Part shown: positions 5,820-38,403 of the stretch, piece after piece
Layout of the letters: the number at the start of each line of letters is the position of its first letter
How positions within the stretch are numbered: the stretch's first letter is position 1
Assembly: GCA_964349395.1 (NCBI GenBank)
Contig: CAYGGA010000003.1
Span: 1,424-65,423, forward strand
Length of the DNA stretch: 64,000 nucleotides
Origin: an uncultured Gammaproteobacteria bacterium
GTDB taxonomy: Bacteria; Patescibacteriota; Microgenomatia; Woykebacterales; RBG-16-39-9b
Direction of reading: 5' to 3'
Translations under genes and position numbers: made by a program
Notes under the pieces: model-generated
Database searches by the model: none
What the model was told of the DNA's origin: nothing
Seen by the model: the letters and a program-made list of their open reading frames with translations, nothing else

Positions 5820-5848
5820 TTGACAAGCAATTGACCGCTTTCTAAACT
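5820..5848 (+). promoter_or_regulatory. Candidate sigma70-like promoter: TTGACA, 17-bp spacer, TAAACT
   Basis: Consensus -35 TTGACA at 5820-5825 and -10-like TAAACT at 5843-5848, in the only long intergenic region upstream of the plus-strand cassette. Confidence 0.3.
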
Positions 5849-5943: not shown

Positions 5944-6075
5944 ATGGCTGCTTATTTTAAAATTGCTTTGCTCTTGCGGGCTTTAAGAAAAATTGAAGTT
6001 ATCTTTGACTTTGTCCTCAAGAAAAACAAACTCAATAGTTCCTTCTCTATAAATGAACTTACAGGATCCGTCTAA
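5944..6075 (+). CDS. Candidate 43-aa leader ORF (MAAYFKIALLLRALRKIEVIFDFVLKKNKLNSSFSINELTGSV)
   Basis: AAAGGA RBS at 5931-5936, 7 nt before the ATG at 5944. The TAA stop at 6073-6075 is the loop of the downstream terminator hairpin. Too short to appear in the ORF track. Confidence 0.3.
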   Translation: MAAYFKIALLLRALRKIEVIFDFVLKKNKLNSSFSINELTGSV

Positions 6076-6091
6076 GACGGATTCTTTTTTT
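6064..6091 (+). terminator. Intrinsic terminator-like hairpin (9-bp stem GGATCCGTC/GACGGATTC, 3-nt loop) followed by T7
   Basis: Seen directly: ggatccgtc-taa-gacggattc, then ttttttt, 17 nt upstream of the ATG of the TasA-like gene. The plus-strand orientation gives the U-tract. Confidence 0.5.
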
Positions 6092-6108
6092 GAAAGGAGG
6101 TGAATAAA

Positions 6109-6702
6109 ATGACAATTAATCCAAGAATCTTACTATCCATGGCCTCTATCGCAGCGGCAGCGACCCTCGGTATCGGCGCTACCTTTGCGTTCTTCTCAAG
6201 CACAGCGACAAGTACTGGTAACGTTTTCAGTACAGGGACACTAACCTTGTTACTTGACGACTTTAATGAGTTAACCCCTGCAGCTACTGTCACTGCATCA
6301 ATTGGGGCCACTATGAATCCTGGACAGACCACAACAGGTTTTGTTTCTTTGCACAATGGCGGAACGGTTGATATAGCAGAAGTCAACGTAGACTCAACAG
6401 CTACTGTACCAAGCTCACCAGATTTAGCGGATAAATTAAATATCACGTTAGCAAGAATAGGTTCAGAGTTCACTTGCACAGTAAGTCCGCTTGACGTAAC
6501 TGGAAGCTTTCCAGCAACCTTGGCTTTATTAAACGCCGATGTTGATGGTGTTGATCTGCCTGGAACTGCATTAGCAGCGCTAGGAACAGATAAGTATCTT
6601 TGTATGACCTTAACGTTGGATTCGGGAACTGACAACACCTATCAAGGTAAAACCATTACCGAAACCTTTACGTTCGTTGGTCATCAAGATCTGACTCAAT
6701 AA
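6109..6702 (+). CDS. TasA/camelysin (CalY)-family secreted protein with a SipW-cognate-class signal peptide
   Basis: N-terminus ...ATFAFFSSTATSTGNVFSTGTLTL matches the AFFSD..s.N.F.aGTLdL signature of TasA/camelysin/SipW-cognate signal peptides. GGAGG RBS 8 nt upstream of the ATG at 6109. The track start at 6100 is a GTG. Confidence 0.6.
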   Translation: MTINPRILLSMASIAAAATLGIGATFAFFSSTATSTGNVFSTGTLTLLLDDFNELTPAATVTASIGATMNPGQTTTGFVSLHNGGTVDIAEVNVDSTATVPSSPDLADKLNITLARIGSEFTCTVSPLDVTGSFPATLALLNADVDGVDLPGTALAALGTDKYLCMTLTLDSGTDNTYQGKTITETFTFVGHQDLTQ

Positions 6703-6712
6703 GAGGGGAATA

Positions 6713-7993
6713 ATGAATTCAAAACTCCTGAGTGGAGTAAAAATTACATTAGCAATTGTGCTGGTAGTGGTGACTGGGGTCTTCGCTTATCTGATCACAC
6801 CGATCTTTGGAAATAAAGTGTTGATCGTGAGAAGTGGGAGTATGTCTCCGTCTCTACCGGTTGGTTCTTTGGTGGCAATAAGGCCCAAAGAAGCACTCCG
6901 TAGCCCACTACCAGCCGTTCCCGTATATCATCCCGGAGATGTTATCTCCTTTAGAGATCCTCTAAACTCCAAAACCATTACTACTCACCGCGTAGTCAGC
7001 GCCAAAACAGAAAACTACTCCGTACTTTATCAAACCAAAGGTGATGCCAATAATGACACTGATCAGAGTTTGGTTGCCGAGAAAAATGTCTTAGGAGCAG
7101 CTTTTCTCACTGTCCCCTACTTAGGACAACTTTTCTCTTTTACTAAAACTGCTTTTGGTTTCTTGCTTTTAGTCCTTATGCCAGCTATATTTGTAATTTT
7201 GATGGAAAGCTGGAATATCATTAGGGAATTAAGAAAAAAGAAACCAATCCCCTATTTCTATCTCAAAGATTTTAAAAACTCAGTCACCCACGGCCCGACC
7301 CTGACTTCTCTAATTCCACTCCTAGCAATAGGCTTAATTTTCAGCCAAACTTTTGCCTATTTTTCTGATACTGCTACTAGCACCAGCAATGTTTTTGCCG
7401 CATCAGCAGAATTTCCCAATCAAAACATAGCAGATCATGTTGTTATTAGTGAAGTTCAAATAACAGGTGGCCCTGGATCTACAAATAATGATTTTATTGA
7501 GTTATATAACCCCACTGACTCACCAATTAATTTAGATCCTTATATATTAGTGAAACGTTCAGGGAGTAGTACTACAGACACCACAATTGTTACATTTACC
7601 TCTACCCATATAATTCCCGCTCAAGGGTTCTTTCTTTGGGCGAATAGTAGCTTCACTTCAATTTCTGCAGATATTGCAACAACTGATATTTTAGCATCTA
7701 GCAATAGTATCGCTCTCAAGGTTCAAACATCAGGTGTAATTGTTGATGCTTTAAGCTGGAATAATGCGACAGAAAGTTATAAAGAAGGAACTGAATTCTC
7801 CCCAGATCCGGATCCAGGGTCAAGTATGGAGAGAAAAGCGCTCTCAACTTCCACGGCAGCGACAATGGTTTCTCCTGGAATCGATGCCACTAAGGGTAAC
7901 GGTCATGACACCAACAACAATAGCACTGATTTTATTTTAAGACCTGTATCACAACCACAAAATAGCACTAGCGGAGGAACAGAAAGTCCTTAA
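6713..7993 (+). CDS. sipW: SipW-type (S26B, archaeal/ER-like) signal peptidase I fused in frame to a second SipW-cognate signal peptide and a lamin-tail domain (LTD)
   Basis: N-terminal TM, then catalytic region VRSGSMSPSLPVGSLV (Ser motif) and a C-terminal TM anchor (FGFLLLVLMPAIFVIL). The frame continues with no stop into ...FSQTFAYFSDTATSTSNVFAAS (second camelysin-type signal). After that comes ISEVQITGGPGSTNNDFIELYNPTD..., typical of an LTD (PF00932). Confidence 0.6.
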   Translation: MNSKLLSGVKITLAIVLVVVTGVFAYLITPIFGNKVLIVRSGSMSPSLPVGSLVAIRPKEALRSPLPAVPVYHPGDVISFRDPLNSKTITTHRVVSAKTENYSVLYQTKGDANNDTDQSLVAEKNVLGAAFLTVPYLGQLFSFTKTAFGFLLLVLMPAIFVILMESWNIIRELRKKKPIPYFYLKDFKNSVTHGPTLTSLIPLLAIGLIFSQTFAYFSDTATSTSNVFAASAEFPNQNIADHVVISEVQITGGPGSTNNDFIELYNPTDSPINLDPYILVKRSGSSTTDTTIVTFTSTHIIPAQGFFLWANSSFTSISADIATTDILASSNSIALKVQTSGVIVDALSWNNATESYKEGTEFSPDPDPGSSMERKALSTSTAATMVSPGIDATKGNGHDTNNNSTDFILRPVSQPQNSTSGGTESP

Positions 7994-9012
7994 TGAAAAA
8001 ATATTTGAGAATTATTAGTCTTACTTTGATCACTTCCTTACTGATTACTCTAAATGGTGGTTTGGATTTGAGCGCTCAGACTGCTCAAGCAGCTGGGGAT
8101 TTGACAGTGAATTGGGGTCCTGGCCTCTCTGAAGGCGACCCAATTTTTGTGGTTTCCAATATGTCTCCGGGACAAATGGAAACTAGAAGTGTTGGGGTAA
8201 CCAACTCTGCCCCCTCATCTAGATCGGTCGGAGTACGGGGTATCCCCACGGATGACAGTGATAGCCTCTCTTCCCAACTGAATATTTTAATCACTGAAGG
8301 AGCGGTTACTCGCTATGGCCCCCAAACTTTGGCTCAATTTTTCACAGCTAGCGGTGGTCCGGATGGAATTTTTCTCTCTAACCTTAACTCTGGGAATTCC
8401 ACGACCTATGATTTCCAGGTAACCTTCAAAGAAACATCTGGTAATAGCTGGCAAAACAAAAGTGTGGTTTTTGACCTAAAAATTGGAGTAGCCATTGATT
8501 TGCCCTCAGAATGTGATAATTTGAACCTATCCTCTACCCCGATTATTGGTTCCTCCAAAGCAGAAACTCTGACAGGTACCCCCGGAAACGATTTGATCAT
8601 GGGTTTAGAAGGAGCAGACAAAATCAATGGTAATGGGGGAGATGATTGCATACTGGGTGGTAGCGGCGCTGACAGTATAAATGGTAATAGTGATAATGAC
8701 GTAATCTTTGGTGAAGATGGTGCAGACACTATCAATGGCAACAATGGGGATGACATCATTGTGGGTGGAGTGGGAGCTGACAGTCTCAAGGGTGAAAACG
8801 GTCAAGATCACTTGCGGGGTGGTTTAAATGCGGATACTCTCGATGGTGGCAATAATGATGATATTTTAGAAGGTAATGAACACGCGGATACCTTAAAAGG
8901 CGGTAATGGGAGTGATAATTTAGATGGTGGAAGTGGAGTAGATACTGCTAATGGTAACAATGGGATAGACACTTGTGTAGCGGAAACCAGAAACAACTGT
9001 GAACTTCCCTAA
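7993..9012 (+). CDS. Secreted beta-roll protein with hemolysin-type calcium-binding (RTX) nonapeptide repeats; Sec signal peptide
   Basis: N-terminal signal (MKKYLRIISLTLITSLLITL...AQA). C-terminal half has at least 14 tandem 9-residue repeats GGxGxDxUx (GGSGADSIN GNSDNDVIF GEDGADTIN GNNGDDIIV ...). Confidence 0.7.
   Translation: MKKYLRIISLTLITSLLITLNGGLDLSAQTAQAAGDLTVNWGPGLSEGDPIFVVSNMSPGQMETRSVGVTNSAPSSRSVGVRGIPTDDSDSLSSQLNILITEGAVTRYGPQTLAQFFTASGGPDGIFLSNLNSGNSTTYDFQVTFKETSGNSWQNKSVVFDLKIGVAIDLPSECDNLNLSSTPIIGSSKAETLTGTPGNDLIMGLEGADKINGNGGDDCILGGSGADSINGNSDNDVIFGEDGADTINGNNGDDIIVGGVGADSLKGENGQDHLRGGLNADTLDGGNNDDILEGNEHADTLKGGNGSDNLDGGSGVDTANGNNGIDTCVAETRNNCELP
8575..8970 (+). repeat. Tandem 27-bp (nonapeptide) RTX repeat array inside the CDS
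   Basis: 27-nt periodicity in the protein (GNxxDxxxG pattern). It generates spurious antisense ORFs at 8406-8996. Confidence 0.65.
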
Positions 9013-9059
9013 AGGAAAGTAGCTGATCAAGCTTTGGAAAGCTGTATCAGCTACTGTAG

Positions 9060-10380
9060 GCTGCCTGGGCTAACAATGATGTTCTCCTGTTAGTTGGTCA
9101 GTGTCGTCCCCGTGAGGAAGACGGGGAAAGTTGCGGTACATTCTTGAAAAGGATCTCCTTTTTGACGTCGTCGGACAGCTCTGTAGTGTTGTCTCGCAGA
9201 GATATGAGCTGGGCGATGCGCATTTCCTTGGTAATTTGTCCCCTCTGGAACTTCTTCCAAATCTGGCGCACGCCGTCCTCGAATTTCTCCTCTGTACTGA
9301 TGAGCCGAAGCCCGTCAAGCACTGGTGGAGACTGACTATAAACACTCAAGGGTTCTTCTCCTTTCAACCTGGTGGCAGCCTAGGTAAAACTTAACACCAT
9401 TACTATCAAATTTCAATAGGGAATTTTGGGGAACCAGTTTGGAAAGAGCGGCACTTGGTTTGCTGTTGCAAACTAGTAATCCGCTCGTTATTTTCTGGCC
9501 GCCGAAGAGAGCCTCAGCTCACTTTCAACACTAATCTTTGGCATGTAGTGCTCAATAGCAAAGGGTGGAACCTCGACTCGAACCTCACCCCGCTAGGGTA
9601 AGCGATTGTCTTGCCTTTGCTTGAACTACTTGGTGTAGCCTCAGTACTGGTGCAGAATCGGAACGTCAATGAACTCTCTCCGGCGATGTGAGTTGCCATC
9701 TCACCATTGTAGAACTGGATAGGGTCAGACCCCTCAGGGTTGACTAGGCTGATTGGACAGAGACCACCACACCTTCCTCTTGTAGGAGAGCAGGTATTCC
9801 TTGCGGAGCCAATGCTTTCCAGTACACAGGGTGACCTCTTTGCACACCCAGGAGTAGGTCGCCAATTGTGCTAATTGCCTGCGACTCGGGACTGCTTTCA
9901 ACCTTGATCGTATCGCCTTGCCAGACTTTCGAAACGTGATCTCCACCTTCGAATTCCGGCGTGGCAGTAATACTGGCTGCTTTTTTCGAGCTTCTCAGCA
10001 CGTTCTGAATAGCCAACATCTCCACCAAGGCCGTTCGTCCCGCATGGACATGACCATCGTAGACTGACGAAGCTGACCCACTTGGGGAAACAGCATTTTT
10101 CACGAGTACCTCATAAAGAACGCGAACGGACTCCAGAAGGTGCTCGACTGGGTCAGGAGTTTTCTTCAGCAAGGCAGCCGAACTGCCCACTTATTTAAAC
10201 TCCAGACAGAATTCAGCGGCGGGGAGGGTTCCACTTCTCTCCACCAATGACATGATCTCTCACCTCACGGGCATATTGCCCCAATGACTGATGAGATGGC
10301 AACGATCTAAAAACAAAATCTATTTTCAAACCGTTGCCACTCAACTAGCAACCAATATTATCACAAAAGCAATTAGTTGT
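9060..10380. other. Compositionally anomalous GC-rich (~50% GC) segment in a convergent intergenic position; no intact gene; possible pseudogene remnant, foreign DNA or structured RNA
   Basis: Sharp GC jump against ~37% flanks. Only short overlapping ORFs (89, 91, 148 aa) with GC3-rich codon usage unlike the rest of the window. Stop-to-stop bounded. No recognisable domain. Confidence 0.4.
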
Positions 10381-10389
10381 TCAAGGTTA

Positions 10390-14548: not shown

Positions 14549-17095
14549 TTAATAATTAGCCAATAAAACTAGCATACCAGCTCTTTTTAAGAGCCGCAAT
14601 CCTCTCTCATCGCGGGCAAATTTCTGGAGCAGGACTTCCCCGCGATCAGCTGAGGTAATCAAAAGTTGGAGTTTTTCACTGGTAATTGTCTTTTCAATAT
14701 CATAGTTGTCGACTTCCTGGTACTTACCTTCAGTATAATAACCAGCCACTTTGGTACTCACCCCGTTTAGTAGCAGTAAATTTTGGCTTCTTCCTTGGTA
14801 TTCAGGACTTAGAATTAGGTCAGCCAAATCTTGGTTGGCATTAGGAGGCGTGATCTTGGTTGTGACTGATGGTAAATTAATATACAGAGGCAACGAGATT
14901 ATCAAAATGACTGGGATAGCGTACTTTACCAGTTTTCCAACGCGCAGATGGTTGAGAGAATGCTTTTGGTAATATTTATAAGTAAGATACACAATAAGTA
15001 GTGACAGCAAGGGTGTCAAAGCGAAAATATTCGGTAAGTGACGGAAATAATTTTGCATAAAAATTACCGGGTCATAAATAACGCTGTAGAGATGCCATGG
15101 TAAAAAGATCAGTAAAAATACGGTTAGATTGACATTGATAAGCAACCCTTTCTTAAGTAGAGTTCGATTCCAGTTTAGTAGTAATAAAAGGTAAATTGGC
15201 AAAAATAGAATAGTAAGTAAACCATCAGTTAGGCTAGCTAACCCCAAAGAGACGCCACTGAGAAGAAAAAGGTGACGGTGTTTTTTACTAAGTTGTAAGG
15301 TATAAATAGAAAGCAAAATAAAGAATGCTGCCATAATTTCCGTATTGACACTACGAGTGAGATAGACAAAAGGTGTGATAAACAGACTTAGCAGGGCTGT
15401 CACAGTAGCCCAGTAACGGTTAATTAGTTGCCTCGCAATAAGATAAGTGAGGAAAATTGCCCCCACTCCAAAGAGGGCCGGCAAAAAACGAATGATAAGA
15501 TTTGGTACGCTCAAATAGAGATGAATAATATTGGTTGATAACCAGTAAAACAAAGGTGGGTAGGACAGATAAGTTGCGCCCTGGTAAGTAGGTACCAGCC
15601 AGTTAGTATTGCGATACATTTCACGAGCAACGGTTGCCAAAACCGCTTCGGAGCTAATGACATTAGTCGATCCCAACCTGTAGAAAATAACAAAGATTGC
15701 TGAGAGTAAGACCGAAACTGCCGGAATAATCTCATACCAATTTAGAGTCTCTTTTTTTTCTCCGTCTGCTAAAACTACCCCTTCTTTCATCAACCGCTCA
15801 AACACCATGGTAAAAAGTAATGCTAAAAAGATGTAAAACCAAAAAAATTCTAAGTTGTAGGAGTAGAAGATTCCCCCAGTCCAAATTCCGATCAGGCCAC
15901 TTAGGAATCCAATGGAGTAAATTTTGACAGTTTTATTATGACTGTGACGAATAAGTTTAATAAGTGATTTAAGAATTAGAATGACAAAAGCTAAATAGAC
16001 AGACAGACCAACCAACCCAGTCTCTGTGATAATCTCAAACCAAACAGAGTGAGCCGGAATTCTCACATCCGCGGGGTCAACTCTAGAGTGTTCCATCCCC
16101 GTTTCACTCTGGCGAAACTTTTCAGAAAAACTACCATAACCAATTCCGAAAATTGGGTTTTCTGTAAAAAGCTCAACTTCACCCCGAAGCAATAGGTAAT
16201 GAGCCTTGGTAGAAGGTTCTTCAAGGTCAACTACGGATTTTACCCTATCAAGTAAAGAACGTCCGGTAGCATTGGAAACAAAGATTACCAGTCCTGATAT
16301 GGCAATGGCCCCAAGTAAGGGTAAAATCTTGCGGTAATACCCCGACTTGATTCCTAAAATTAATATGACCAGACTACCTACTATTAAGGAAAGTAGCCCA
16401 CTTCGGGAAAAGGAGTAAAGAATGACAAAAGAGATCAAGAAATAAGCTAACCACCAGAAAGCTTTTGGCCAGAATTTTTTTTCGAGCCATGAAAAAGCTA
16501 CCACCATGGGGGCAATCATGCTCAGGTAAGCCGCAAAATGATTAGCGTCAAAAAATGTTCCGGGTAAGCGTATATAGTCTCCCCCACTTAGAACTCCAGG
16601 AAGATTATGTCCAATAAAGGTAATTACTACATACTGAAACAAACCATAAAAACCAACTACAAGACCAAAAAGGACAAAAGCTCGCACCAATTTGATTACA
16701 AAAAATCTCGATGGCAAAAGAATCGACCTCATCAAAATGTATAGACTTATCATCGCTGTGTAGAAAGCGAAAAGCTCGACACTGGCACCAAGATTACCAC
16801 TTTGCATGAGTGATACTAATCTTATCAACCAGAGTACTCCTAAAAGGCGGAAAACATTGTCCCCTGAAAGTTCTTTGACTGCTTTAGTGAAATTTAGTGT
16901 CTTTTTAGTGATACCCTGAAAAATAAAGTAAACTCCTGCCAAGATTAGAAAGAGCAATAAAATTCTTACGGGCACAATTTTGTTATAGAGGATACTCATA
17001 CGAGAGTGGTCAGCTAAGGGAATTAAGACTACAAAAAGTAGCAGACTGTATTGGAAAAATTCTAAAAAGTTTGTAATTTTAGGCAGTTTTGGCAT
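14549..17095 (-). CDS. Fusion membrane protein: N-terminal O-antigen ligase/polymerase-like (Wzy_C) domain plus C-terminal GT-C (PMT/ArnT-like, GT39/GT83) domain
   Basis: N-terminal half is multi-TM with the YSFSRSGLLSLIVG motif (Wzy_C SRG signature) and a large loop. C-terminal half has a loop-1 acidic motif SSEAVLATVAREMY...YPPLFYW, as in ArnT/PMT. 848 aa. Confidence 0.5.
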   Translation of the reverse strand: MPKLPKITNFLEFFQYSLLLFVVLIPLADHSRMSILYNKIVPVRILLLFLILAGVYFIFQGITKKTLNFTKAVKELSGDNVFRLLGVLWLIRLVSLMQSGNLGASVELFAFYTAMISLYILMRSILLPSRFFVIKLVRAFVLFGLVVGFYGLFQYVVITFIGHNLPGVLSGGDYIRLPGTFFDANHFAAYLSMIAPMVVAFSWLEKKFWPKAFWWLAYFLISFVILYSFSRSGLLSLIVGSLVILILGIKSGYYRKILPLLGAIAISGLVIFVSNATGRSLLDRVKSVVDLEEPSTKAHYLLLRGEVELFTENPIFGIGYGSFSEKFRQSETGMEHSRVDPADVRIPAHSVWFEIITETGLVGLSVYLAFVILILKSLIKLIRHSHNKTVKIYSIGFLSGLIGIWTGGIFYSYNLEFFWFYIFLALLFTMVFERLMKEGVVLADGEKKETLNWYEIIPAVSVLLSAIFVIFYRLGSTNVISSEAVLATVAREMYRNTNWLVPTYQGATYLSYPPLFYWLSTNIIHLYLSVPNLIIRFLPALFGVGAIFLTYLIARQLINRYWATVTALLSLFITPFVYLTRSVNTEIMAAFFILLSIYTLQLSKKHRHLFLLSGVSLGLASLTDGLLTILFLPIYLLLLLNWNRTLLKKGLLINVNLTVFLLIFLPWHLYSVIYDPVIFMQNYFRHLPNIFALTPLLSLLIVYLTYKYYQKHSLNHLRVGKLVKYAIPVILIISLPLYINLPSVTTKITPPNANQDLADLILSPEYQGRSQNLLLLNGVSTKVAGYYTEGKYQEVDNYDIEKTITSEKLQLLITSADRGEVLLQKFARDERGLRLLKRAGMLVLLANY

Positions 17096-27741: not shown

Positions 27742-29064
27742 ATGATTTTAACTACCTTTATGTGGGAAAAACTAAAAGAAAATAAACTGGTTTTAATCCC
27801 TAGCTTGATTGGTCTTGTTACCCTTTTTTATGGCTTGGGAAGTCATTACCAAAAATTGGTCAGTGATGAAATGACCTTTTTTCTGAATGCCGATTTTCTC
27901 AAAGGAGACCCGTACTACCCTTACCTTATTCTTCCTGAAGGGATAGGCACTACTCACACTCTACTGCCTTATCTAATCGGCTTCTCACTCGAAATTTTTG
28001 GTTACACAATCTTCGGTCTTAGATTTGTTCCAGCTCTTTTTGGGCTTTTGGGAATTGCAGTTTTTTTCTTCTTGGTAAAAGGTATGGTCAACAAACACAG
28101 ATCCGCTTTGCTAGCCGCCACTTTATTGGCGCTTACTCATTGGTATATCGCAATTTCCCGAGTTGCGATTGAACTCTCTGAAATCCTCTTTTTTACGATC
28201 CTAAATCTATATTGTCTATCTTTGTTTTTAAATGTGGATCCCTCTACTGCCACTATTGGCAACTTTAAAATTAAGAAAAAGTATATCTTTATCCTCCTAA
28301 CTGGTCTGACCTTTGGACTAGTCCAACATACCTATCAATCAGCTCGAGTTTACTTACTTTTTTATATCCTTTTCTTCCCAATTTATTGGTGGGTGAAAAA
28401 AGTCCGCTTGAAAGAAATGGTCGTTTACAGTCTCCTTTTTGCCTTAGGTTTTATAATTACCCTCTCTCCTCTCATTTTTGCATACCTGCAGCACCCTGAA
28501 AGTTTTGACTCTCGGAAAGGGGAACTAGTCTTCTACCAAAACCTAGGCCCACAAGATTTGCTTTGGTCTCTCAAAGAAAGCACTTTTAGAACTTTAGGAA
28601 TGTTTCATTTTAGAGGTAGTGATGTTAGCTGTTACAATGTTCCCGCTAGACCCATGCTTGACCCTTACTCCAGTTTTTTCCTAATAATTGGCTTTGTCCT
28701 CGCTCTTAAAAATTTTAGAAGGGAAGTCAATTTAGTTTTATTACTTTTCTTTGCGGTAGCTTTAGTTCCCAGTATTATTTCTTATTGGCCAGCCGCCCCA
28801 CACGGCCTAAGAGCATCTGGAGTCATCATTCCGACCATGGTCTGGGTAGGTTTGGGACTAGAAAAAACCAGTCAATTATTTAAAAAGTACCAATGGATTT
28901 TTCTAATCTTCGCCCTCTTAATAATTGGCTATTTAAATCTAAAAACTTATTTTGTTGATCAGGCATCCTTACAAACAGACTGCTTTAGAATTGACGTGGG
29001 GGATTTCCAAAAATATAAGGATCAGTTCTTGGAGTTTACAGAAGGTGTAAAATATATCCGATGA
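27742..29064 (+). CDS. GT-C glycosyltransferase (ArnT/PMT-like, GT39/GT83)
   Basis: Loop-1 motif KLVSDEMTF after TM1, then multiple TM helices. 440 aa. Start uncertain because only 35 bp separate it from the divergent gene. Confidence 0.5.
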   Translation: MILTTFMWEKLKENKLVLIPSLIGLVTLFYGLGSHYQKLVSDEMTFFLNADFLKGDPYYPYLILPEGIGTTHTLLPYLIGFSLEIFGYTIFGLRFVPALFGLLGIAVFFFLVKGMVNKHRSALLAATLLALTHWYIAISRVAIELSEILFFTILNLYCLSLFLNVDPSTATIGNFKIKKKYIFILLTGLTFGLVQHTYQSARVYLLFYILFFPIYWWVKKVRLKEMVVYSLLFALGFIITLSPLIFAYLQHPESFDSRKGELVFYQNLGPQDLLWSLKESTFRTLGMFHFRGSDVSCYNVPARPMLDPYSSFFLIIGFVLALKNFRREVNLVLLLFFAVALVPSIISYWPAAPHGLRASGVIIPTMVWVGLGLEKTSQLFKKYQWIFLIFALLIIGYLNLKTYFVDQASLQTDCFRIDVGDFQKYKDQFLEFTEGVKYIR

Positions 29065-30041
29065 AGAAACTTCTAAAAGTTGGAGTGGTCGGGGTTGGTG
29101 TCATGGGTGCTGAGCATGCTCGTGTCTACTCTACACTAAAAGGCTGCCAACTAGTGGGGGTTTATGATAACCATAAAAGCCTTGCAAAAAAGGTGGCTAG
29201 AAAACTAGGTGTTACTTCCTTTCAAAATTTGGATGATTTACTGAAGGAAGTAAAGGCAGTAAGCGTGTGCACCCCAACAACCACCCATTTTGATGTTGCC
29301 TCCAAAGCTCTAAACCAAAGGGTCGCGGTTCTGATCGAAAAACCCATCGCTAATACCCTTGAAGAGGCGGAGAAACTCATCAAGCTAGCCAAGATAAATA
29401 AAACGACCTTGTCCGTGGGTCACATCGAACGATTTAACCCGGTTATTGAGACTCTTAAAAAGAGATTAGAGAAACAAAAAGTCATCTCAATAAATATTAC
29501 TAGGCTGGGTCCTATACCACCAAGAATTAAAGACGTCGGAATTATATTAGATCTTGGAACTCATGATATTGACTTAATCAGGTATTTAACTAAAAGTCAT
29601 TTTGAGAAGATAAATTCAGTTTTTTCTAGCAAATCGAATAAATTTGAAGATGCGGCCATTTTAAGCTTTCAGATGAAAAACAAGACTATTGCCTCAGTAA
29701 TTACCAATTGGTACACTCCATATAAAGTCCGACAGATCGAGGTGGCGACCATGGACAAACTTTTGGTGGGTAATTTGATGAGTCAGCAAGTAGTGGAGTA
29801 CTCCAACTACGATGGTTCCGGGTCTTATGTAACGAAAAGTTTGCCTGTTAAATATACTGAACCTTTATATGAAGAGTTGAATAGTTTTACCCAAGCAATC
29901 AGTAGTAACAAAAAGCCACGAGTCTCGGGTTTAGATGGCCTGGAGGCGGTTAGAGTGGCTCTTTACTGCCAAAAACTAGTTGCGGATAAGCAACCAAACA
30001 AAGTCACGGAAAGCCAAAACCGGAGTCCAAAGTTTAACTGA
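29061..30041 (+). CDS. Gfo/Idh/MocA-family NAD(P)-dependent sugar oxidoreductase
   Basis: KVGVVGVGVMGAEHARVY Rossmann motif and EKPIA motif. Confidence 0.7.
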   Translation: MKKLLKVGVVGVGVMGAEHARVYSTLKGCQLVGVYDNHKSLAKKVARKLGVTSFQNLDDLLKEVKAVSVCTPTTTHFDVASKALNQRVAVLIEKPIANTLEEAEKLIKLAKINKTTLSVGHIERFNPVIETLKKRLEKQKVISINITRLGPIPPRIKDVGIILDLGTHDIDLIRYLTKSHFEKINSVFSSKSNKFEDAAILSFQMKNKTIASVITNWYTPYKVRQIEVATMDKLLVGNLMSQQVVEYSNYDGSGSYVTKSLPVKYTEPLYEELNSFTQAISSNKKPRVSGLDGLEAVRVALYCQKLVADKQPNKVTESQNRSPKFN

Positions 30042-34138: not shown

Positions 34139-35350
34139 ATGGTCAAGAAACTCAAAAATCTTCTCATTTCTCTCACTGTCCTCCTTACCACTTTAGTCCT
34201 TATTTTTCTGGCGGGGGAATTTTGGGTTAGAAATTTTGTATTGGTTAATAAAACTAGTGGCAACTGTGTCCAGGCTGATCCCATCGTAAAATTTAAAGCT
34301 GTACCCAGTAGTGAGTGCAGATCTCAAACCCCAGAATGGAATATTATCAATAAACACAACTCTTTTGGTCTCAGGAACCCCGAGACTACCTTGGAAAAAC
34401 CTGCAAATACATTTAGAATTTTGTATTTAGGAGATTCGTTTGTCCAAGGATATGGAGTCGCTGAGGAAAAAAGCTTTGTCAGAACTTTGGAAAAGAAGCT
34501 CAACGAAAAATACTCCGGGAGTCCAAAAATTGAAGTAATCAATGCCGGGGTTCCTAATTACTCCCCTCTAATTGAGTATCTCTATCTTAAAAATGAAGGG
34601 GTTAAGTTTAGTCCTGATTTGGTAATTCTTGAATTTGATATGACTGACTTCTCCAATGACCTAGCTTACAGTCGTGAAGCAGATTACGATGAGCGAGGCG
34701 AACCAATTGCCGTCCCTGCAACCCCGTCGGCTAGTCCCAGGCCTCAAGAAGCTACCTCTCAAGCCATCTCTACTCCCGCCTCAACTCCAAAAATGGCTGA
34801 TAAAAAACTGTTGCCCTTCCTGCCAAGCAATATTAAGCAATTTTTCCATGATAATTCAGTTTTTTACAAATGGCTCTCCACCCAGTTTAAAATCCTCTTA
34901 GGACAACCTTTAGCTGATCCAGAGAAAGAGGGAATTGAGAATTTTTACACCATTGTGAAAGAAGACAAACAGTATGATGACAAACTTTGGGGAAACCCAA
35001 AGAAGAATCTAAAATTAATCAATGAAATACTTAAAGAAGAAAATATACCTTTTATAGTCAGCGCTCACCCACACGCGATTTTAGTAAGTGGTACTGAGTG
35101 GAGCACGGGTAGACTATTGCATGGTCTTGAGAGAGGCAAAGTTTATGATGCACGTTACTTTACCCAAATGGATACGTTTCTAAAAGAAGAAGGAATTTCT
35201 TTTATAAATCTACTTAGCTACTTTAGAGACGACAAAAAGGAAAAGTATTTTCCTTTTGATGGCCACTTTAATAACCATGGACACGAGGTGGCCGCTAATG
35301 GTATTTACCAAGAACTAACAAAATTGGATTTGATAAAGAATAAAGACTAG
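34139..35350 (+). CDS. SGNH/GDSL-family hydrolase, membrane-anchored (possible polysaccharide O-acyl esterase/transferase)
   Basis: N-terminal TM, GDSL block RILYLGDSFVQGYG, C-terminal DGHFNNHGH (catalytic Asp/His region). Pro/Ser/Thr-rich linker PATPSASPRPQEATSQAISTPASTPK. Confidence 0.6.
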   Translation: MVKKLKNLLISLTVLLTTLVLIFLAGEFWVRNFVLVNKTSGNCVQADPIVKFKAVPSSECRSQTPEWNIINKHNSFGLRNPETTLEKPANTFRILYLGDSFVQGYGVAEEKSFVRTLEKKLNEKYSGSPKIEVINAGVPNYSPLIEYLYLKNEGVKFSPDLVILEFDMTDFSNDLAYSREADYDERGEPIAVPATPSASPRPQEATSQAISTPASTPKMADKKLLPFLPSNIKQFFHDNSVFYKWLSTQFKILLGQPLADPEKEGIENFYTIVKEDKQYDDKLWGNPKKNLKLINEILKEENIPFIVSAHPHAILVSGTEWSTGRLLHGLERGKVYDARYFTQMDTFLKEEGISFINLLSYFRDDKKEKYFPFDGHFNNHGHEVAANGIYQELTKLDLIKNKD

Positions 35351-36552
35351 GCGAAAACTTTTTCTTTCTGCCAAATTCTCATGGTATCTTGGTAGACTTT
35401 AACCAACCCATTTATATAACCAGACTCATTCATATTTTTCTCTACAAACTCTCGACCGTTTTTACCCATCTCTTTATTTACTTCAGGGTTATCCAAAAGA
35501 AAATTAATTCTCTCCACCAAACCTTCTACATCTAGCCTGTTTACCAAGTACCCATTAAAAGAGTCCTTCAGCCATTCCCCCACTCCTCCTGTATCAAAAC
35601 CGACTACACTCCGACTAAAGCTCATTGCTTCTGGACCAGTCTTACCATGAGGCTCAGGCCAAATGCTTGGGAAAACAAGAAGATCGCATTCATTATAGTA
35701 ATGCCACAGGTGACTCTGGCTTACTTCTCCAACAAATCTTACTTTTCTTCCTACCCCCAAGTCCTGTGCCAATTGTTTATACTCTTCGAGTTGTGGTCCA
35801 TCACCCACAATAGTAAGAGTACCCGAAATGCCTTTCATAGCTTCAATCGCGTACTGAGGACCTTTTTCCAGGGTCACTCGGCCAACAAATAGAATTTGGC
35901 GCTTATTTTTGGGAACTGTACTTCTGCCTGGTAATGTCACTGGGTGAGGCAAAATAACCACCTTTTTCAAATCAAAATCATTTATCTCTAGCTGGGTAGA
36001 CATAAATTTTGAAGCTATCAAGATTTTAGGTAATTTTTGATTTACCTCTAGTTCATAAAATTTGGCTTGGTATTTTTTAAGTAGCTTTATTGGTTTGTTG
36101 GTAGCGCAATGCTCTTTGTAAGCATTTACTAGACACCTAACTGAAAAAGGGATCGGACAAATTTGATTAGAATTGTACCAAGTTTTTGAAAACCCAGGAC
36201 AGTAAAGACGGTGGTCATGGACATGACGCATCGTTGGGGCAAGGGTCATAAATTCATTAACAAAATAACCATTTAAAATATTGTTAATCTGAATTATGTC
36301 GGGCTTCTCAACACTAATTAGTCTTTCAATTTCCCCAAGGACTTGGTCTTTATTTTTGGGAAATTCTTCTTCTAACCCAGGAATCTGGTAGGCGGTAAAA
36401 CCTTCTTTTTTTATCTTTTTTGGATCGGGTCCATCCCCATAGATGATAATAATCTCATGGCCTAACTTTTTTAGGGCCGCGGAGATTTGACGAATATAGA
36501 TTTCAGTGCCACCTTCATAAAAGAACTTGTCATTAACCTGAAAAATCCTCAT
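35347..36552 (-). CDS. Glycosyltransferase family 4
   Basis: SIWPEPHGKTGPEAMSFSRSVVGFDTGGVGEWLKD. Confidence 0.65.
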   Translation of the reverse strand: MRIFQVNDKFFYEGGTEIYIRQISAALKKLGHEIIIIYGDGPDPKKIKKEGFTAYQIPGLEEEFPKNKDQVLGEIERLISVEKPDIIQINNILNGYFVNEFMTLAPTMRHVHDHRLYCPGFSKTWYNSNQICPIPFSVRCLVNAYKEHCATNKPIKLLKKYQAKFYELEVNQKLPKILIASKFMSTQLEINDFDLKKVVILPHPVTLPGRSTVPKNKRQILFVGRVTLEKGPQYAIEAMKGISGTLTIVGDGPQLEEYKQLAQDLGVGRKVRFVGEVSQSHLWHYYNECDLLVFPSIWPEPHGKTGPEAMSFSRSVVGFDTGGVGEWLKDSFNGYLVNRLDVEGLVERINFLLDNPEVNKEMGKNGREFVEKNMNESGYINGLVKVYQDTMRIWQKEKVFA

Positions 36553-38403
36553 CTACTCCATTTTAGCATAATTGAATTGACAGCCTTTTCCCAAACCAGT
36601 GATAATAAGTCTAACTTGAAAAAACTTTTCCTATCCCCCACCTTTAAGTTTGGTTTTATCGCTGCCATAGTTTATCTGTTAATTGCAATCGTACTCACCT
36701 GGCCGCTAATATCAAAATTTACGACTCACATTCCTGGGGTGGATGAAGACTCCGCCACTCATATTTGGTATCTGTGGTGGTTTAAATGGGCTTTTGTAGA
36801 AGGCCACTCACCTCTTTTTAAAACTGACTGGATTTTTCATCCCCAGATTATTGACAGGATTTTTGATGTCCATACTTTTGTAAATGCAGCTATCTCCCTG
36901 CCTTTCCAATACCTAGTTGGCCTAATTGCTTCATCCAACCTCCTTTTCTATCTTAACTTCTTCTTAACCGGTTTGGGTATGTTTGCTTTGGTTAAAAAAT
37001 TAACAGACAACTATTGGTCAGCTTTTATCGCAGGTTTGATAGTGGTCTTTATGCCCTATACATGGGGACAGATCCTGGACAATCACACCAATCTTTACAC
37101 TATCTGGTTTATTCCTTTTTATTTACTTTTTTTACTGCGGACTCTAGGTGAGAAAGGTTGGAAAAACCCACTACTAGCTGGGCTATTTTTTGGACTGCAA
37201 GCTTTGAATGATTTAACCCTAACTACTTTCATGATTGCTGCGACTTTAATGATCGGCTTTTATTACTTTGTTTTCCAACCCGGTATTATCCGAACTACCA
37301 AACTAAATCTTAATTGGGAAACTATTAAAAGGTTATTACTTCTAGGCACTATTTTTACTTTGGTTTTTCTTCCCCTTTTGGTTCCTGTTTCCCAAGCGAT
37401 TATGGGTGGCCAAGATCCAGGATCGTCTTTGCATGACCAGCAAGTTTGGTCAGCTCAACCCCAAAATTTCCTAATCCCTTCCGGAAACAATCCATTTCTT
37501 AGAGATTTCTCCAGAACTCAAAATGTTAATGCTATTGAGGGTAGCATCTATCTAGGCTTTATTGCAGTTGTATTAGCCCTAATTGGAATCATTTACTACT
37601 TGGCCATCAACCGTTATCTTTCTAGACAAATTGGTTTATGGGTTTTCCTTTTTATTTCTTTTCTGATTCTGTCTCTAGGTCCTTGCGCTCATTATCTAGG
37701 AATAAATACCAATTTGTCTTTTTGCTCTGGAACTCCCCTGCCTTTTGTCTTCTTTCACAAATTACCTTTTATTGGCGGTATCCAAGAACCTATCCGGATG
37801 CAAATCTACACCATGATTTGCTTAGCAGTGCTAGCTGGGTTTGGAATTAAGGCTACTCTAACTAGGTTTAACTTTGCCACTAAAATACTTCTCACCTTGG
37901 GGATTTCTCTTTTAATTCTCTTTGAATATTACACGCCCTTACCTTTAACTGATTTAACTGCTCCCCCAATCTATAAAACCATTCAGGAGGACAGAAGTGA
38001 TTTTAGTGTTTTAAGTTTACCAGTAGGATGGAATAATCAATCTTTTAACACTGGTTTTTCTCCGATTGGGTCCTTGCAGTTTTTCCAGACTGCCCACGAA
38101 CATAAGTCTTTTAGAGCCACGGTTGCGCGAGTTCCTACCCAAAATATTCACTATTATCTGGATAAACCCTTGTTTAAATACCTCACTCAACCAGATTTGA
38201 GAATTCCTGACAAAGACGATCTAGATCCAGATCTGGCCCAAAAAACATTTAGCGACTTTCATATCAAATATATTGTAATGCATAAAAAGTACTATTTGCA
38301 GAAGAAGAAAAGTGCCGGACAAACCCAAGAGCTCATTGAAGGAGTTTTAAAAGCAGAAAAAATTCAAGAAGACAATGATATCGTTACTTATAAACTAAAG
38401 TAG
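36487..38403 (+). CDS. Polytopic membrane protein, GT-C-like novel family (paralog of 45468-47507 and 47554-49650)
   Basis: Loop after TM1 has GVDEDSATHIWYLWWFKWAF. A later block has MPYTWGQILDNHTNLYTIWFIPFY. About 12 TM helices plus a C-terminal soluble domain. The start is uncertain: the track ATG overlaps the divergent GT4 gene by 66 nt, and an in-frame TTG lies at 36616. Confidence 0.45.
   Translation: MTNIDFSATFIKELVINLKNPHLLHFSIIELTAFSQTSDNKSNLKKLFLSPTFKFGFIAAIVYLLIAIVLTWPLISKFTTHIPGVDEDSATHIWYLWWFKWAFVEGHSPLFKTDWIFHPQIIDRIFDVHTFVNAAISLPFQYLVGLIASSNLLFYLNFFLTGLGMFALVKKLTDNYWSAFIAGLIVVFMPYTWGQILDNHTNLYTIWFIPFYLLFLLRTLGEKGWKNPLLAGLFFGLQALNDLTLTTFMIAATLMIGFYYFVFQPGIIRTTKLNLNWETIKRLLLLGTIFTLVFLPLLVPVSQAIMGGQDPGSSLHDQQVWSAQPQNFLIPSGNNPFLRDFSRTQNVNAIEGSIYLGFIAVVLALIGIIYYLAINRYLSRQIGLWVFLFISFLILSLGPCAHYLGINTNLSFCSGTPLPFVFFHKLPFIGGIQEPIRMQIYTMICLAVLAGFGIKATLTRFNFATKILLTLGISLLILFEYYTPLPLTDLTAPPIYKTIQEDRSDFSVLSLPVGWNNQSFNTGFSPIGSLQFFQTAHEHKSFRATVARVPTQNIHYYLDKPLFKYLTQPDLRIPDKDDLDPDLAQKTFSDFHIKYIVMHKKYYLQKKKSAGQTQELIEGVLKAEKIQEDNDIVTYKLK

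Follow-up and report, generated by a model that had tools for sequence, protein, structure and literature searches.

Surface fibres of the TasA type, built by donor-strand exchange, have been studied mainly in Bacillus and lately in a few archaea, and their initiation, termination and retention on the cell are still debated. In Bacillus subtilis, the tapA-sipW-tasA operon encodes a dedicated signal peptidase of the endoplasmic reticulum (ER)/archaeal type (SipW), a jelly-roll subunit whose mature N-terminus is a donor strand (TasA) and an accessory protein (TapA). TasA is cleaved at TWA/AFNDI and the mature protein starts at residue 28 (PMC9674648, PMC10151520); in the fibre, the donor strand consists of mature residues 28-38 and completes the beta-sandwich of the subunit that follows, with F29, I32 and F39 buried (PMC9674648). 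TapA has a signal peptide, a near-identical N-terminal strand (AFHDI) and an already complete immunoglobulin (Ig) fold, donates a strand but cannot accept one, and has been placed at the filament start; TapA and SipW are both of low abundance, and their genes overlap stop to start (PMC10151520). The archaeal bundling pili and AbpX loci (AbpA/AbpB) also produce donor-strand fibres of the TasA superfamily, often beside a dedicated archaeal-type signal peptidase I (TIGR02228 at AbpX) and with accessory TapA-like or tip proteins, and Ca2+ takes part in AbpX assembly (PMC9245690; bioRxiv 10.64898/2026.01.04.697558). TasA homologues have been noted in Patescibacteria (PMC9245690). The stretch of DNA analysed here (64,000 nucleotides of contig CAYGGA010000003.1, hereafter the window) contains a block of three genes, A, B and C, that on balance is read as an operon for a TasA-type donor-strand-exchange surface fibre in a Microgenomates-group host of the candidate phyla radiation (CPR), functionally the counterpart of Bacillus tapA-sipW-tasA.

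The cassette resembles the Bacillus operon in its dedicated ER/archaeal-type peptidase, in a jelly-roll subunit with a donor strand at the mature N-terminus, and in an accessory protein laid out like TapA (a signal peptide, then a strand of the TasA donor type, then an Ig-like domain that is already complete), which would likewise only donate. Unlike the Bacillus operon, it is ordered tasA-like, sipW::initiator, tasA-like-RTX; its peptidase and putative initiator are joined in a single polypeptide, the signal peptide of the latter being internal; the globular domain of the initiator is a lamin-tail domain (LTD) and not a TapA fold; an apparently accept-only component, TasA-like plus RTX, has no Bacillus counterpart; the host belongs to the CPR; and the peptidase fails the SipW equivalog cut-off. 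No peptidase-substrate fusion has been reported from the archaeal loci, where the AbpX-associated peptidase is described as an enzyme of 10 transmembrane (TM) segments, and, unlike AbpX, the cassette would bind Ca2+ through an RTX module on a separate cap protein. The cassette thus appears to be a variant of the known TasA/TapA/SipW system, notable for the self-substrate fusion and for the explicit division between donor and acceptor.

The peptidase-pre-protein fusion

The three genes are co-directional on the plus strand and tightly packed in the list of open reading frames (ORFs). Gene A, encoding a TasA/camelysin-like major subunit (6109..6702, 197 aa from the ATG at 6109), is separated by 10 nt from gene B (6713..7993, 426 aa in a single uninterrupted frame), which encodes an ER/archaeal-type signal peptidase followed by an internal signal peptide, a donor-strand motif and an LTD; the stop codon of B overlaps the start codon (TAATG) of gene C (7993..9012, 339 aa), which encodes a TasA-like domain and an RTX beta-roll. 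An alternative start of gene A exists (GTG at 6100), and the ATG is favoured by a ribosome-binding site (RBS; aaaggagg) 8 nt upstream of it. The initial annotation, made from the letters of the window alone, had taken the block for the only one on the plus strand; this was mistaken, seven of the 48 long ORFs being on that strand (27742-30041 and 34139-38403, for example).

The peptidase module of B (residues 1-170, 6713..7222), delimited by TIGR02228, alignment and fold, comprises TM1 (residues ~11-31), the catalytic domain and TM2 (residues ~147-170). It matches the archaeal-type signal peptidase I family TIGR02228 of NCBIfam over residues 13-163 (81.1 bits, cut-off 51.85). By alignment, the catalytic residues are Ser43 (6839-6841, in SGSM), His92 (6986-6988, in THR), Asp111 (7043-7045) and Asp117 (7061-7063, both in GDAN..D), all on the plus strand and invariant in 23 aligned fusions, with His and not Lys in the second position. 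Their counterparts in human SEC11A/C lie in the motifs SGSM, HRV and GDxN..D (profile match, E 1e-13); the catalytic triad of SEC11A is Ser56/His96/Asp122 (bioRxiv 10.1101/2020.11.11.378711). In a fold search with the AlphaFold2 (AF2) model, the domain matches SEC11 in 7P2P/7P2Q (TM-score 0.6). B scores below the cut-off of the Bacillus SipW equivalog NF046067 (100.7 versus 190 bits), and by these sequence comparisons the peptidase is evidently of the same enzyme type as Bacillus SipW without being its equivalog, so that the initial assignment to the SipW type, with catalytic Ser and His intact, stands. Among the fold matches of B are Streptococcus pyogenes SipA/LepA-type homologues (4N31), which are likewise signal-peptidase-fold proteins dedicated to a surface-fibre locus; unlike B, whose Ser, His and Asp are invariant, SipA has no catalytic residues and works as a chaperone in the assembly of sortase pili.

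The reading frame of B continues beyond TM2 through a Lys/Arg-rich, predicted cytoplasmic linker (residues 171-196, 7223..7300, assigned by alignment and of low predicted local distance difference test score, pLDDT) into a third hydrophobic helix, TM3 (residues 197-213). This helix is the h-region of the internal signal peptide and leads into the site T213-F214-A215/Y216 (7301..7357; AF2 helix and alignment). The TasA/TapA-type donor-strand motif of the LTD protein, YFSDTATSTSNVFAAS, comes next (7358..7405; TIGR04088 and alignment), and then the LTD itself, a complete Ig-like beta-sandwich (residues ~237-420, 7421..7972; PF00932 and fold). The SipW-cognate signal family TIGR04088 is matched by residues 205-230, internally and not at the N-terminus (19.9 bits, cut-off 19), and the LTD family PF00932 of Pfam by residues 240-350 (E 3e-11, 44.1 bits, cut-off 34.3). 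With Foldseek, the LTD matches the Ig domains of lamin B1 and lamin A/C, best lamin B1 (TM-score 0.71, root-mean-square deviation 3.1 Å; pLDDT mostly >90). The whole model (pLDDT 85.6) has three confident parts, namely the two-TM peptidase domain, the helix 197-213 and the Ig-like domain, and residues 213-235 are disordered (pLDDT <50). Thus, the in-frame fusion of a SipW-type peptidase to a SipW-type pre-protein with an LTD, as originally proposed, is borne out. The three hydrophobic helices, with the Lys/Arg-rich loop between the second and the third, point to a topology in which the N-terminus is inside, the catalytic domain between TM1 and TM2 outside, the loop after TM2 cytoplasmic, and TM3 oriented as a signal peptide would be, with the cleavage site on the outer side of the membrane. 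The linker between TM2 and TM3 varies among homologues from ~15 to >100 aa and is in frame in all of them. Between residues 165 and 215 of B there is neither an in-frame ATG, GTG or TTG nor an RBS; a separate translation product beginning inside B is thereby ruled out, and the LTD half can be made only via the fusion.

In 57 aligned fused homologues, position -1 of the predicted site is Ala (47) or Ser (10), and position -3 is Thr, Ser, Ala or Gly in every one. Stand-alone LTD proteins (10 aligned) have the same site behind an N-terminal signal peptide, with Ser, Ala or Gly at -1 and Thr or Ser at -3, and the predicted site of B coincides with the cleavage position in these forms and in protein A (TFA27, then FF). 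On the alignment with TasA (TWA/AFNDI), protein A and the stand-alone LTD pre-proteins, B would most likely be cleaved at T213-F214-A215, before Y216, and such a cut would leave the motif YFSDTATSTSNVF, in which D219, S223 and N226 are at least 90% conserved, on the mature LTD protein. The cleavage at SNVFAAS suggested in the initial annotation is very probably wrong, because the -3/-1 rule points in all 57 fusions to a site before the motif FSDTATSTSNVF. The C-terminal half released by this cut would consist of the donor-strand motif, a variable and often Pro/Thr-rich linker and the complete Ig-like LTD. Polyproteins of viruses such as the flaviviruses contain internal TM segments resembling signal peptides that are cut by an ER-type signal peptidase, releasing the downstream ectodomain; unlike B, in which enzyme and substrate are on one chain, they rely on a separate host enzyme.

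The fusion is not peculiar to the window. The 57 aligned full-length homologues of B (380-500 aa, 33-53% identity) were found in assemblies from NCBI, JGI, ENA and Logan, their hosts being Levy-, Curtiss- and Woykebacteria and unclassified Patescibacteria, and those that carry a name are annotated only as 'signal peptidase I'. The same search also returned many proteins of 235-280 aa that match the LTD half alone; examples start with an ordinary N-terminal signal peptide and the same motif (e.g. ...KVTFA, then LFSSQATSTNNTF). Nine related loci share the gene order TasA-like protein, peptidase, signal-LTD and C-type protein. Four of them (L001-L004) have the fusion, as the window does, whereas peptidase and LTD are encoded by neighbouring separate genes in the other five (L005, L006, L007, L009 and L012), two of which have an ATGA stop/start overlap; fusion and fission are therefore one small step apart. 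The search for the same fusion in related genomes, proposed in the initial annotation as a check, thus came out positive, and the C-terminal half of B is, on these comparisons of sequence and gene order, a genuine pre-protein.

Residues 1-185 of B were compared with 1.84 billion cluster representatives (50% identity), and the best 150 of 14,177 matches (E up to 1e-3) were classified as fused to an LTD (63), carrying another C-terminal extension (52) or stand-alone (35). Thus, 115 of these best 150 representatives have a C-terminal passenger, and 41 of the 52 with other extensions carry the third TM segment and the motif. The non-LTD passengers mostly lack a Pfam match; a few resemble RTX, LysM or beta-propeller proteins. 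P0310, P0341, P0358 and others are relatives with other passengers behind the same TM3 and motif, among them RTX, LysM and beta-propeller-like domains and extensions of 500-700 aa; P0358 has an apparent tandem second peptidase-like segment. The fused state is clustered on a rough neighbour-joining tree (17 changes versus ~30 in shuffles) with large fused clades, a pattern that points to an old origin of these clades and an occasional later split, or else to repeated events. Most of the closest relatives of the peptidase therefore have the fused architecture, which is common in public data under a generic annotation. The initial remark that no description of such a fusion had been seen before holds insofar as no description of a peptidase-substrate fusion was found in the literature searched, which left out most subscription journals, but rare the architecture is not.

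The TasA-like proteins A and C

Protein A is a TasA/camelysin-like protein, as first annotated. It matches PF12389 (E 1e-10, 42.2 bits, gathering score 22.5) and TIGR04088 (24.2 bits, cut-off 19), and the profile of its family matches the TasA structures 5OF1/8AUR at E 3e-8. Its signal peptide (residues 1-27) has a predicted cleavage site at TFA27, before F28, by alignment with TasA, and A27, F29, N38, F40 and G43 are invariant in 28 homologues. The mature N-terminus would be the donor-strand motif FFSSTATSTGNVF (6190..6228, plus strand), which aligns with TasA residues 28-39 and matches the motif hidden Markov model (HMM); by analogy with TasA, this motif would insert into the next subunit. 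When the first 16 mature residues of A and of the LTD protein are compared, pairs from one locus agree at 8.2 of the 16 positions and pairs from different loci at 6.6 (permutation p ~0.003, 10 loci), a co-variation that would fit both strands serving one peptidase and one acceptor groove.

Protein C belongs to a family of >100 full-length members (39-66% identity). The initial annotation described it as an RTX protein with a Sec signal; both features are present, but so is a TasA-like domain that had been overlooked. The ordinary Sec signal (residues 1-33) has a predicted cleavage site at AQA33, before AGDL, by alignment; across 50 homologues, A33, G35 and D36 never vary, and conservation of L37 is at least 90%. 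Residues 34-175 (8092..8517, plus strand) form a TasA-like jelly-roll without the donor strand, according to hhalign and Foldseek. The family of A matches that of C with a probability of 98.7% (hhalign, E 1.6e-16), the alignment beginning at GTL of A and GDL of C, and the N-terminal domain in the AF2 model of C (pLDDT 91.7) matches the TasA fibre subunit 8AUR_A (Foldseek, E 2.8e-4, probability 1.0), with weak fold matches to FimA and FimG; PF12389 stays below threshold on protein C. Cleavage at A33, before xGDL, removes the region equivalent to the donor strand. In the window and the nine related loci, no C-type protein matches the donor-motif HMM (E up to 1), and the motif is present in every A-type and LTD-type protein of the same 10 loci. 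The TasA-like domain is present in the C-type proteins of all nine related loci, and the RTX part in six.

The RTX beta-roll of C (residues 195-329, 8575..8979, plus strand) contains ~15 nonapeptides by PF00353, register count and AF2, in agreement with the minimum of 14 counted originally. It scores 106.9 bits against PF00353 (E 4e-31, cut-off 23), keeps a strict 9-residue register with AF2 strands every 9 residues (pLDDT ~97), and matches the CyaA RTX blocks in fold. No ABC, HlyD or TolC genes of type I secretion lie within ~10 kb of the cassette, which upholds another of the original observations. The CPR envelope is of the monoderm type, and on general grounds Sec export followed by Ca2+-driven folding outside would dispense with a type I system. 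Four cysteines are invariant in 50 homologues of C: Cys174 (8512-8514) at the junction of jelly-roll and beta-roll, Cys219 (8647-8649) in the second RTX turn, and Cys328 (8974-8976) and Cys336 (8998-9000), which close the beta-roll at the C-terminus. All four probably form disulfides that staple the protein together outside the cell. An antisense ORF in the RTX region (8406-8789, minus strand), seemingly 'conserved' in three other loci, was rejected as a gene and attributed to the periodicity of the repeats.

The most fitting reading of C is a terminal subunit that only accepts a strand and carries a beta-roll folding with Ca2+. Chaperone-usher pili of type 1 and P offer a parallel, in that the FimH-type two-domain terminal subunit accepts a strand and has none to donate, while the other subunits do both. 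There is no evolutionary relationship, and unlike those pili the cassette has neither usher nor periplasmic chaperone, its host has a monoderm-like envelope, and assembly would be self-driven as for TasA.

Proposed fibre assembly and its alternatives

These features may be combined into a model of fibre assembly. The peptidase domain of B would cut TFA215/Y216, in cis or on a neighbouring copy, leaving a peptidase with three TM helices and freeing a product of 211 aa composed of donor strand, linker and LTD. This product, donate-only like TapA, would start the fibre, and the fusion would ensure 1:1 production and co-localisation of peptidase and initiator. The same peptidase would mature A at TFA27/F28, and the new N-terminus would complete the jelly-roll of the next subunit, A thus polymerising by donor-strand exchange. 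C would take the last free donor strand and, being unable to extend the fibre, would serve as terminal cap or adhesin. A dedicated SipW-type peptidase would be needed because of the aromatic P1'/P2' residues (FF in A, YF in B); with Phe at P2', TasA is processed poorly by enzymes of the LepB type (PMC10269814). The initial proposal of a peptidase-substrate fusion within a CPR fibre or adhesin module is, to this extent, supported in silico.

Several points weigh against the model. The internal TIGR04088 match in B is only just above its cut-off (19.9 versus 19), and the AF2 monomer does not place the cleavage site confidently relative to the active site, residues 213-235 being of low confidence. 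The evidence for co-variation of the motifs comes from 10 loci, and gene conversion between the two could have produced it. The LTD of B has no sequence homology to TapA, the parallel being architectural only; no TapA-related family appeared in Pfam and NCBIfam scans of the cassette, and no TapA structure was among the fold matches of B. After cleavage in cis, the retained TM3 and C-terminus might compete with further substrates, a cost that the model leaves unexplained.

The main rival is an uncleaved link, TM3 being a permanent anchor that displays the LTD and a donor-like strand on the surface as an attachment or nucleation point for the fibre, or as a plain adhesin. CPR cells need a means of fibre attachment, and no sortase or wall-anchoring motif was seen in the cassette with Pfam and NCBIfam; TapA has been reported to co-localise with the membrane (PMC10151520), and the AF2 model shows no docking of the cleavage site at the catalytic residues. 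Such an anchor is nevertheless considered unlikely, since a mere TM end would not require the small residues found at -3 and -1 in 57 of 57 fusions, since the same sequence is a necessarily cleaved N-terminal signal peptide in the split and stand-alone forms, and since the catalytic triad lies a few nanometres off on the same chain. A little less probable again is that no polymer is formed and that the dedicated SipW-type peptidase serves only for the maturation of two or three secreted or surface proteins that act independently (camelysin-like, LTD adhesin and RTX), the shared motif being a peptidase recognition element only. TIGR04088 by definition describes a signature of signal peptides, PF12389 takes its name from the metalloprotease camelysin, and recognition by one peptidase could equally account for the co-variation of the motifs. 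In TasA, however, the motif follows the cleavage site and forms an inter-subunit strand (PMC9674648), the profile of A matches the TasA fibre subunit 8AUR, and C has a TasA-like fold yet misses exactly the donor strand and uses an ordinary signal, a combination that is hard to explain except by donor/acceptor logic.

That C is an unrelated RTX exoprotein or toxin merely located downstream seems very improbable. Its RTX repeat score is strong and it partially matches RTX-toxin family models, but these scores are far below the cut-offs (NF033943, 73.5 versus 1000; serralysin, 44.7 versus 500), its start overlaps the stop of B, and type I secretion genes are missing nearby; moreover, a C-type gene follows the LTD gene in all nine related loci, with the TasA-like domain constant and the RTX part absent in three. 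The explanation of the fusion as an artefact, whether a missed stop, a frameshift or a chimeric assembly joining two genes, is effectively refuted. The ATGA overlap of the split relatives means that a single-base error could make a fusion, but 57 fused homologues of 33-53% identity from four sources of assemblies, with linkers of variable length always in frame, an identical B protein on three contigs and passengers in 115 of the 150 nearest representatives, argue otherwise. The sequencing error named in the initial annotation as a possible cause is excluded by these fused homologues together with split versions in the same gene order.

Genomic setting and significance

Upstream of the operon, a promoter-like site (TTGACA-17-TAAACT, 5820..5848, plus strand) is tentative, coming from a consensus scan in which such sites were no more numerous than in shuffled sequence. 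The leader contains an ORF of 43 codons (5944-6075, plus strand), which one public annotation lists among its genes, together with a 10-bp hairpin followed by T7 (6063..6092, plus strand) that ends 8 nt before the RBS of gene A and could be an attenuator or the terminator of the 43-codon ORF. The position of the hairpin suggests a riboswitch or attenuator, but no Rfam family was found at gathering score or at E up to 5, and the sequence is unconserved in related loci. Directly after the stop codon of C, a strong hairpin without a T-run (9019..9054, plus strand; sequence and fold) is possibly the operon terminator. The following 1.4 kb (9013-10389) has a GC content of 0.47-0.52 against a background of ~0.40 and stop codons throughout six frames; its longest ORF (148 aa) has no Pfam match, and the minus-strand RNA fold gives a z-score of -4.2 on only 20 shuffles. 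No Rfam or tRNA match was found in this region and no counterpart in 80 related loci; it could be a decayed gene, a foreign remnant or a structured RNA.

The cassette lies, on the opposite strand, within a large envelope-glycan cluster (Bac_transf, GT2, several GT4, a Wzy_C-PMT fusion and DUF2079). The Wzy_C-PMT gene (14549-17095, minus strand) encodes 848 aa and joins an O-antigen-ligase-like Wzy_C domain to PMT (protein O-mannosyltransferase-like). The flanking glycosylation machinery, originally thought to decorate the fibre, is thus real, but a functional link is unsupported and a conserved one is rejected, none of these glycan genes recurring beside the cassette in the nine other loci. 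All-against-all clustering for further conserved partners of the cassette returned only two families, neither of them in the cassette of the window. A secreted Asn/Thr/Gly-rich repeat family without Pfam match (NTGGNxAxxNTGGxVTIxTGNAS...) adjoins the cassette in five related loci (L006 7599-10562, L007 7695-8294, L012 4029-5290, L002 8422-11288 and L004 642-3550) and may be a further matrix component. Small genes of the four-helix-bundle family 23S_rRNA_IVP lie beside the cassette in three loci (L001 3457-3831; L004 3709-4065 and 8739-9131; L012 3626-3991), an association that is probably incidental. L003, L005, L006, L009 and other third-party annotation records of metagenome-assembled genomes contain Microgenomates-type cassettes under the names 'uncultured Gammaproteobacteria bacterium', 'Saccharibacteria' or 'archaeon', and the taxonomy given in these bin records is evidently unreliable.

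The cassette separates three roles into distinct architectures, with A expected to donate and accept, the LTD protein to donate only and C to accept only, and ties the putative initiator covalently to its processing enzyme, which would make it a clean natural system for the rules of initiation and termination. It is also a rare bacterial case of an internal signal peptide, and of a peptidase co-translated with its own substrate. For annotation, it suggests that TIGR04088-type motifs are donor strands and not only signal signatures. A broader proposal, put forward tentatively and held as doubtful, is that the SipW-type peptidases of Microgenomates-group CPR bacteria constitute an extensive class, so far undescribed, of fibre machines that prime themselves, every enzyme molecule being made with its first substrate attached by way of an internal signal peptide. 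Autoprocessing would yield one initiator per peptidase at the membrane site where subunits exit, or a link left partly uncut would anchor the fibre; the passengers would be swappable (LTD, RTX, LysM, beta-propeller and unknown folds), presenting different adhesins at one end of the fibre with an accept-only TasA-RTX cap at the other, and the fibres could be attachment organelles of epibionts. The structures by which CPR bacteria attach to their hosts are largely unknown, and the fusion points to a widespread family, mis-annotated as 'signal peptidase I', that may build CPR surface appendages.

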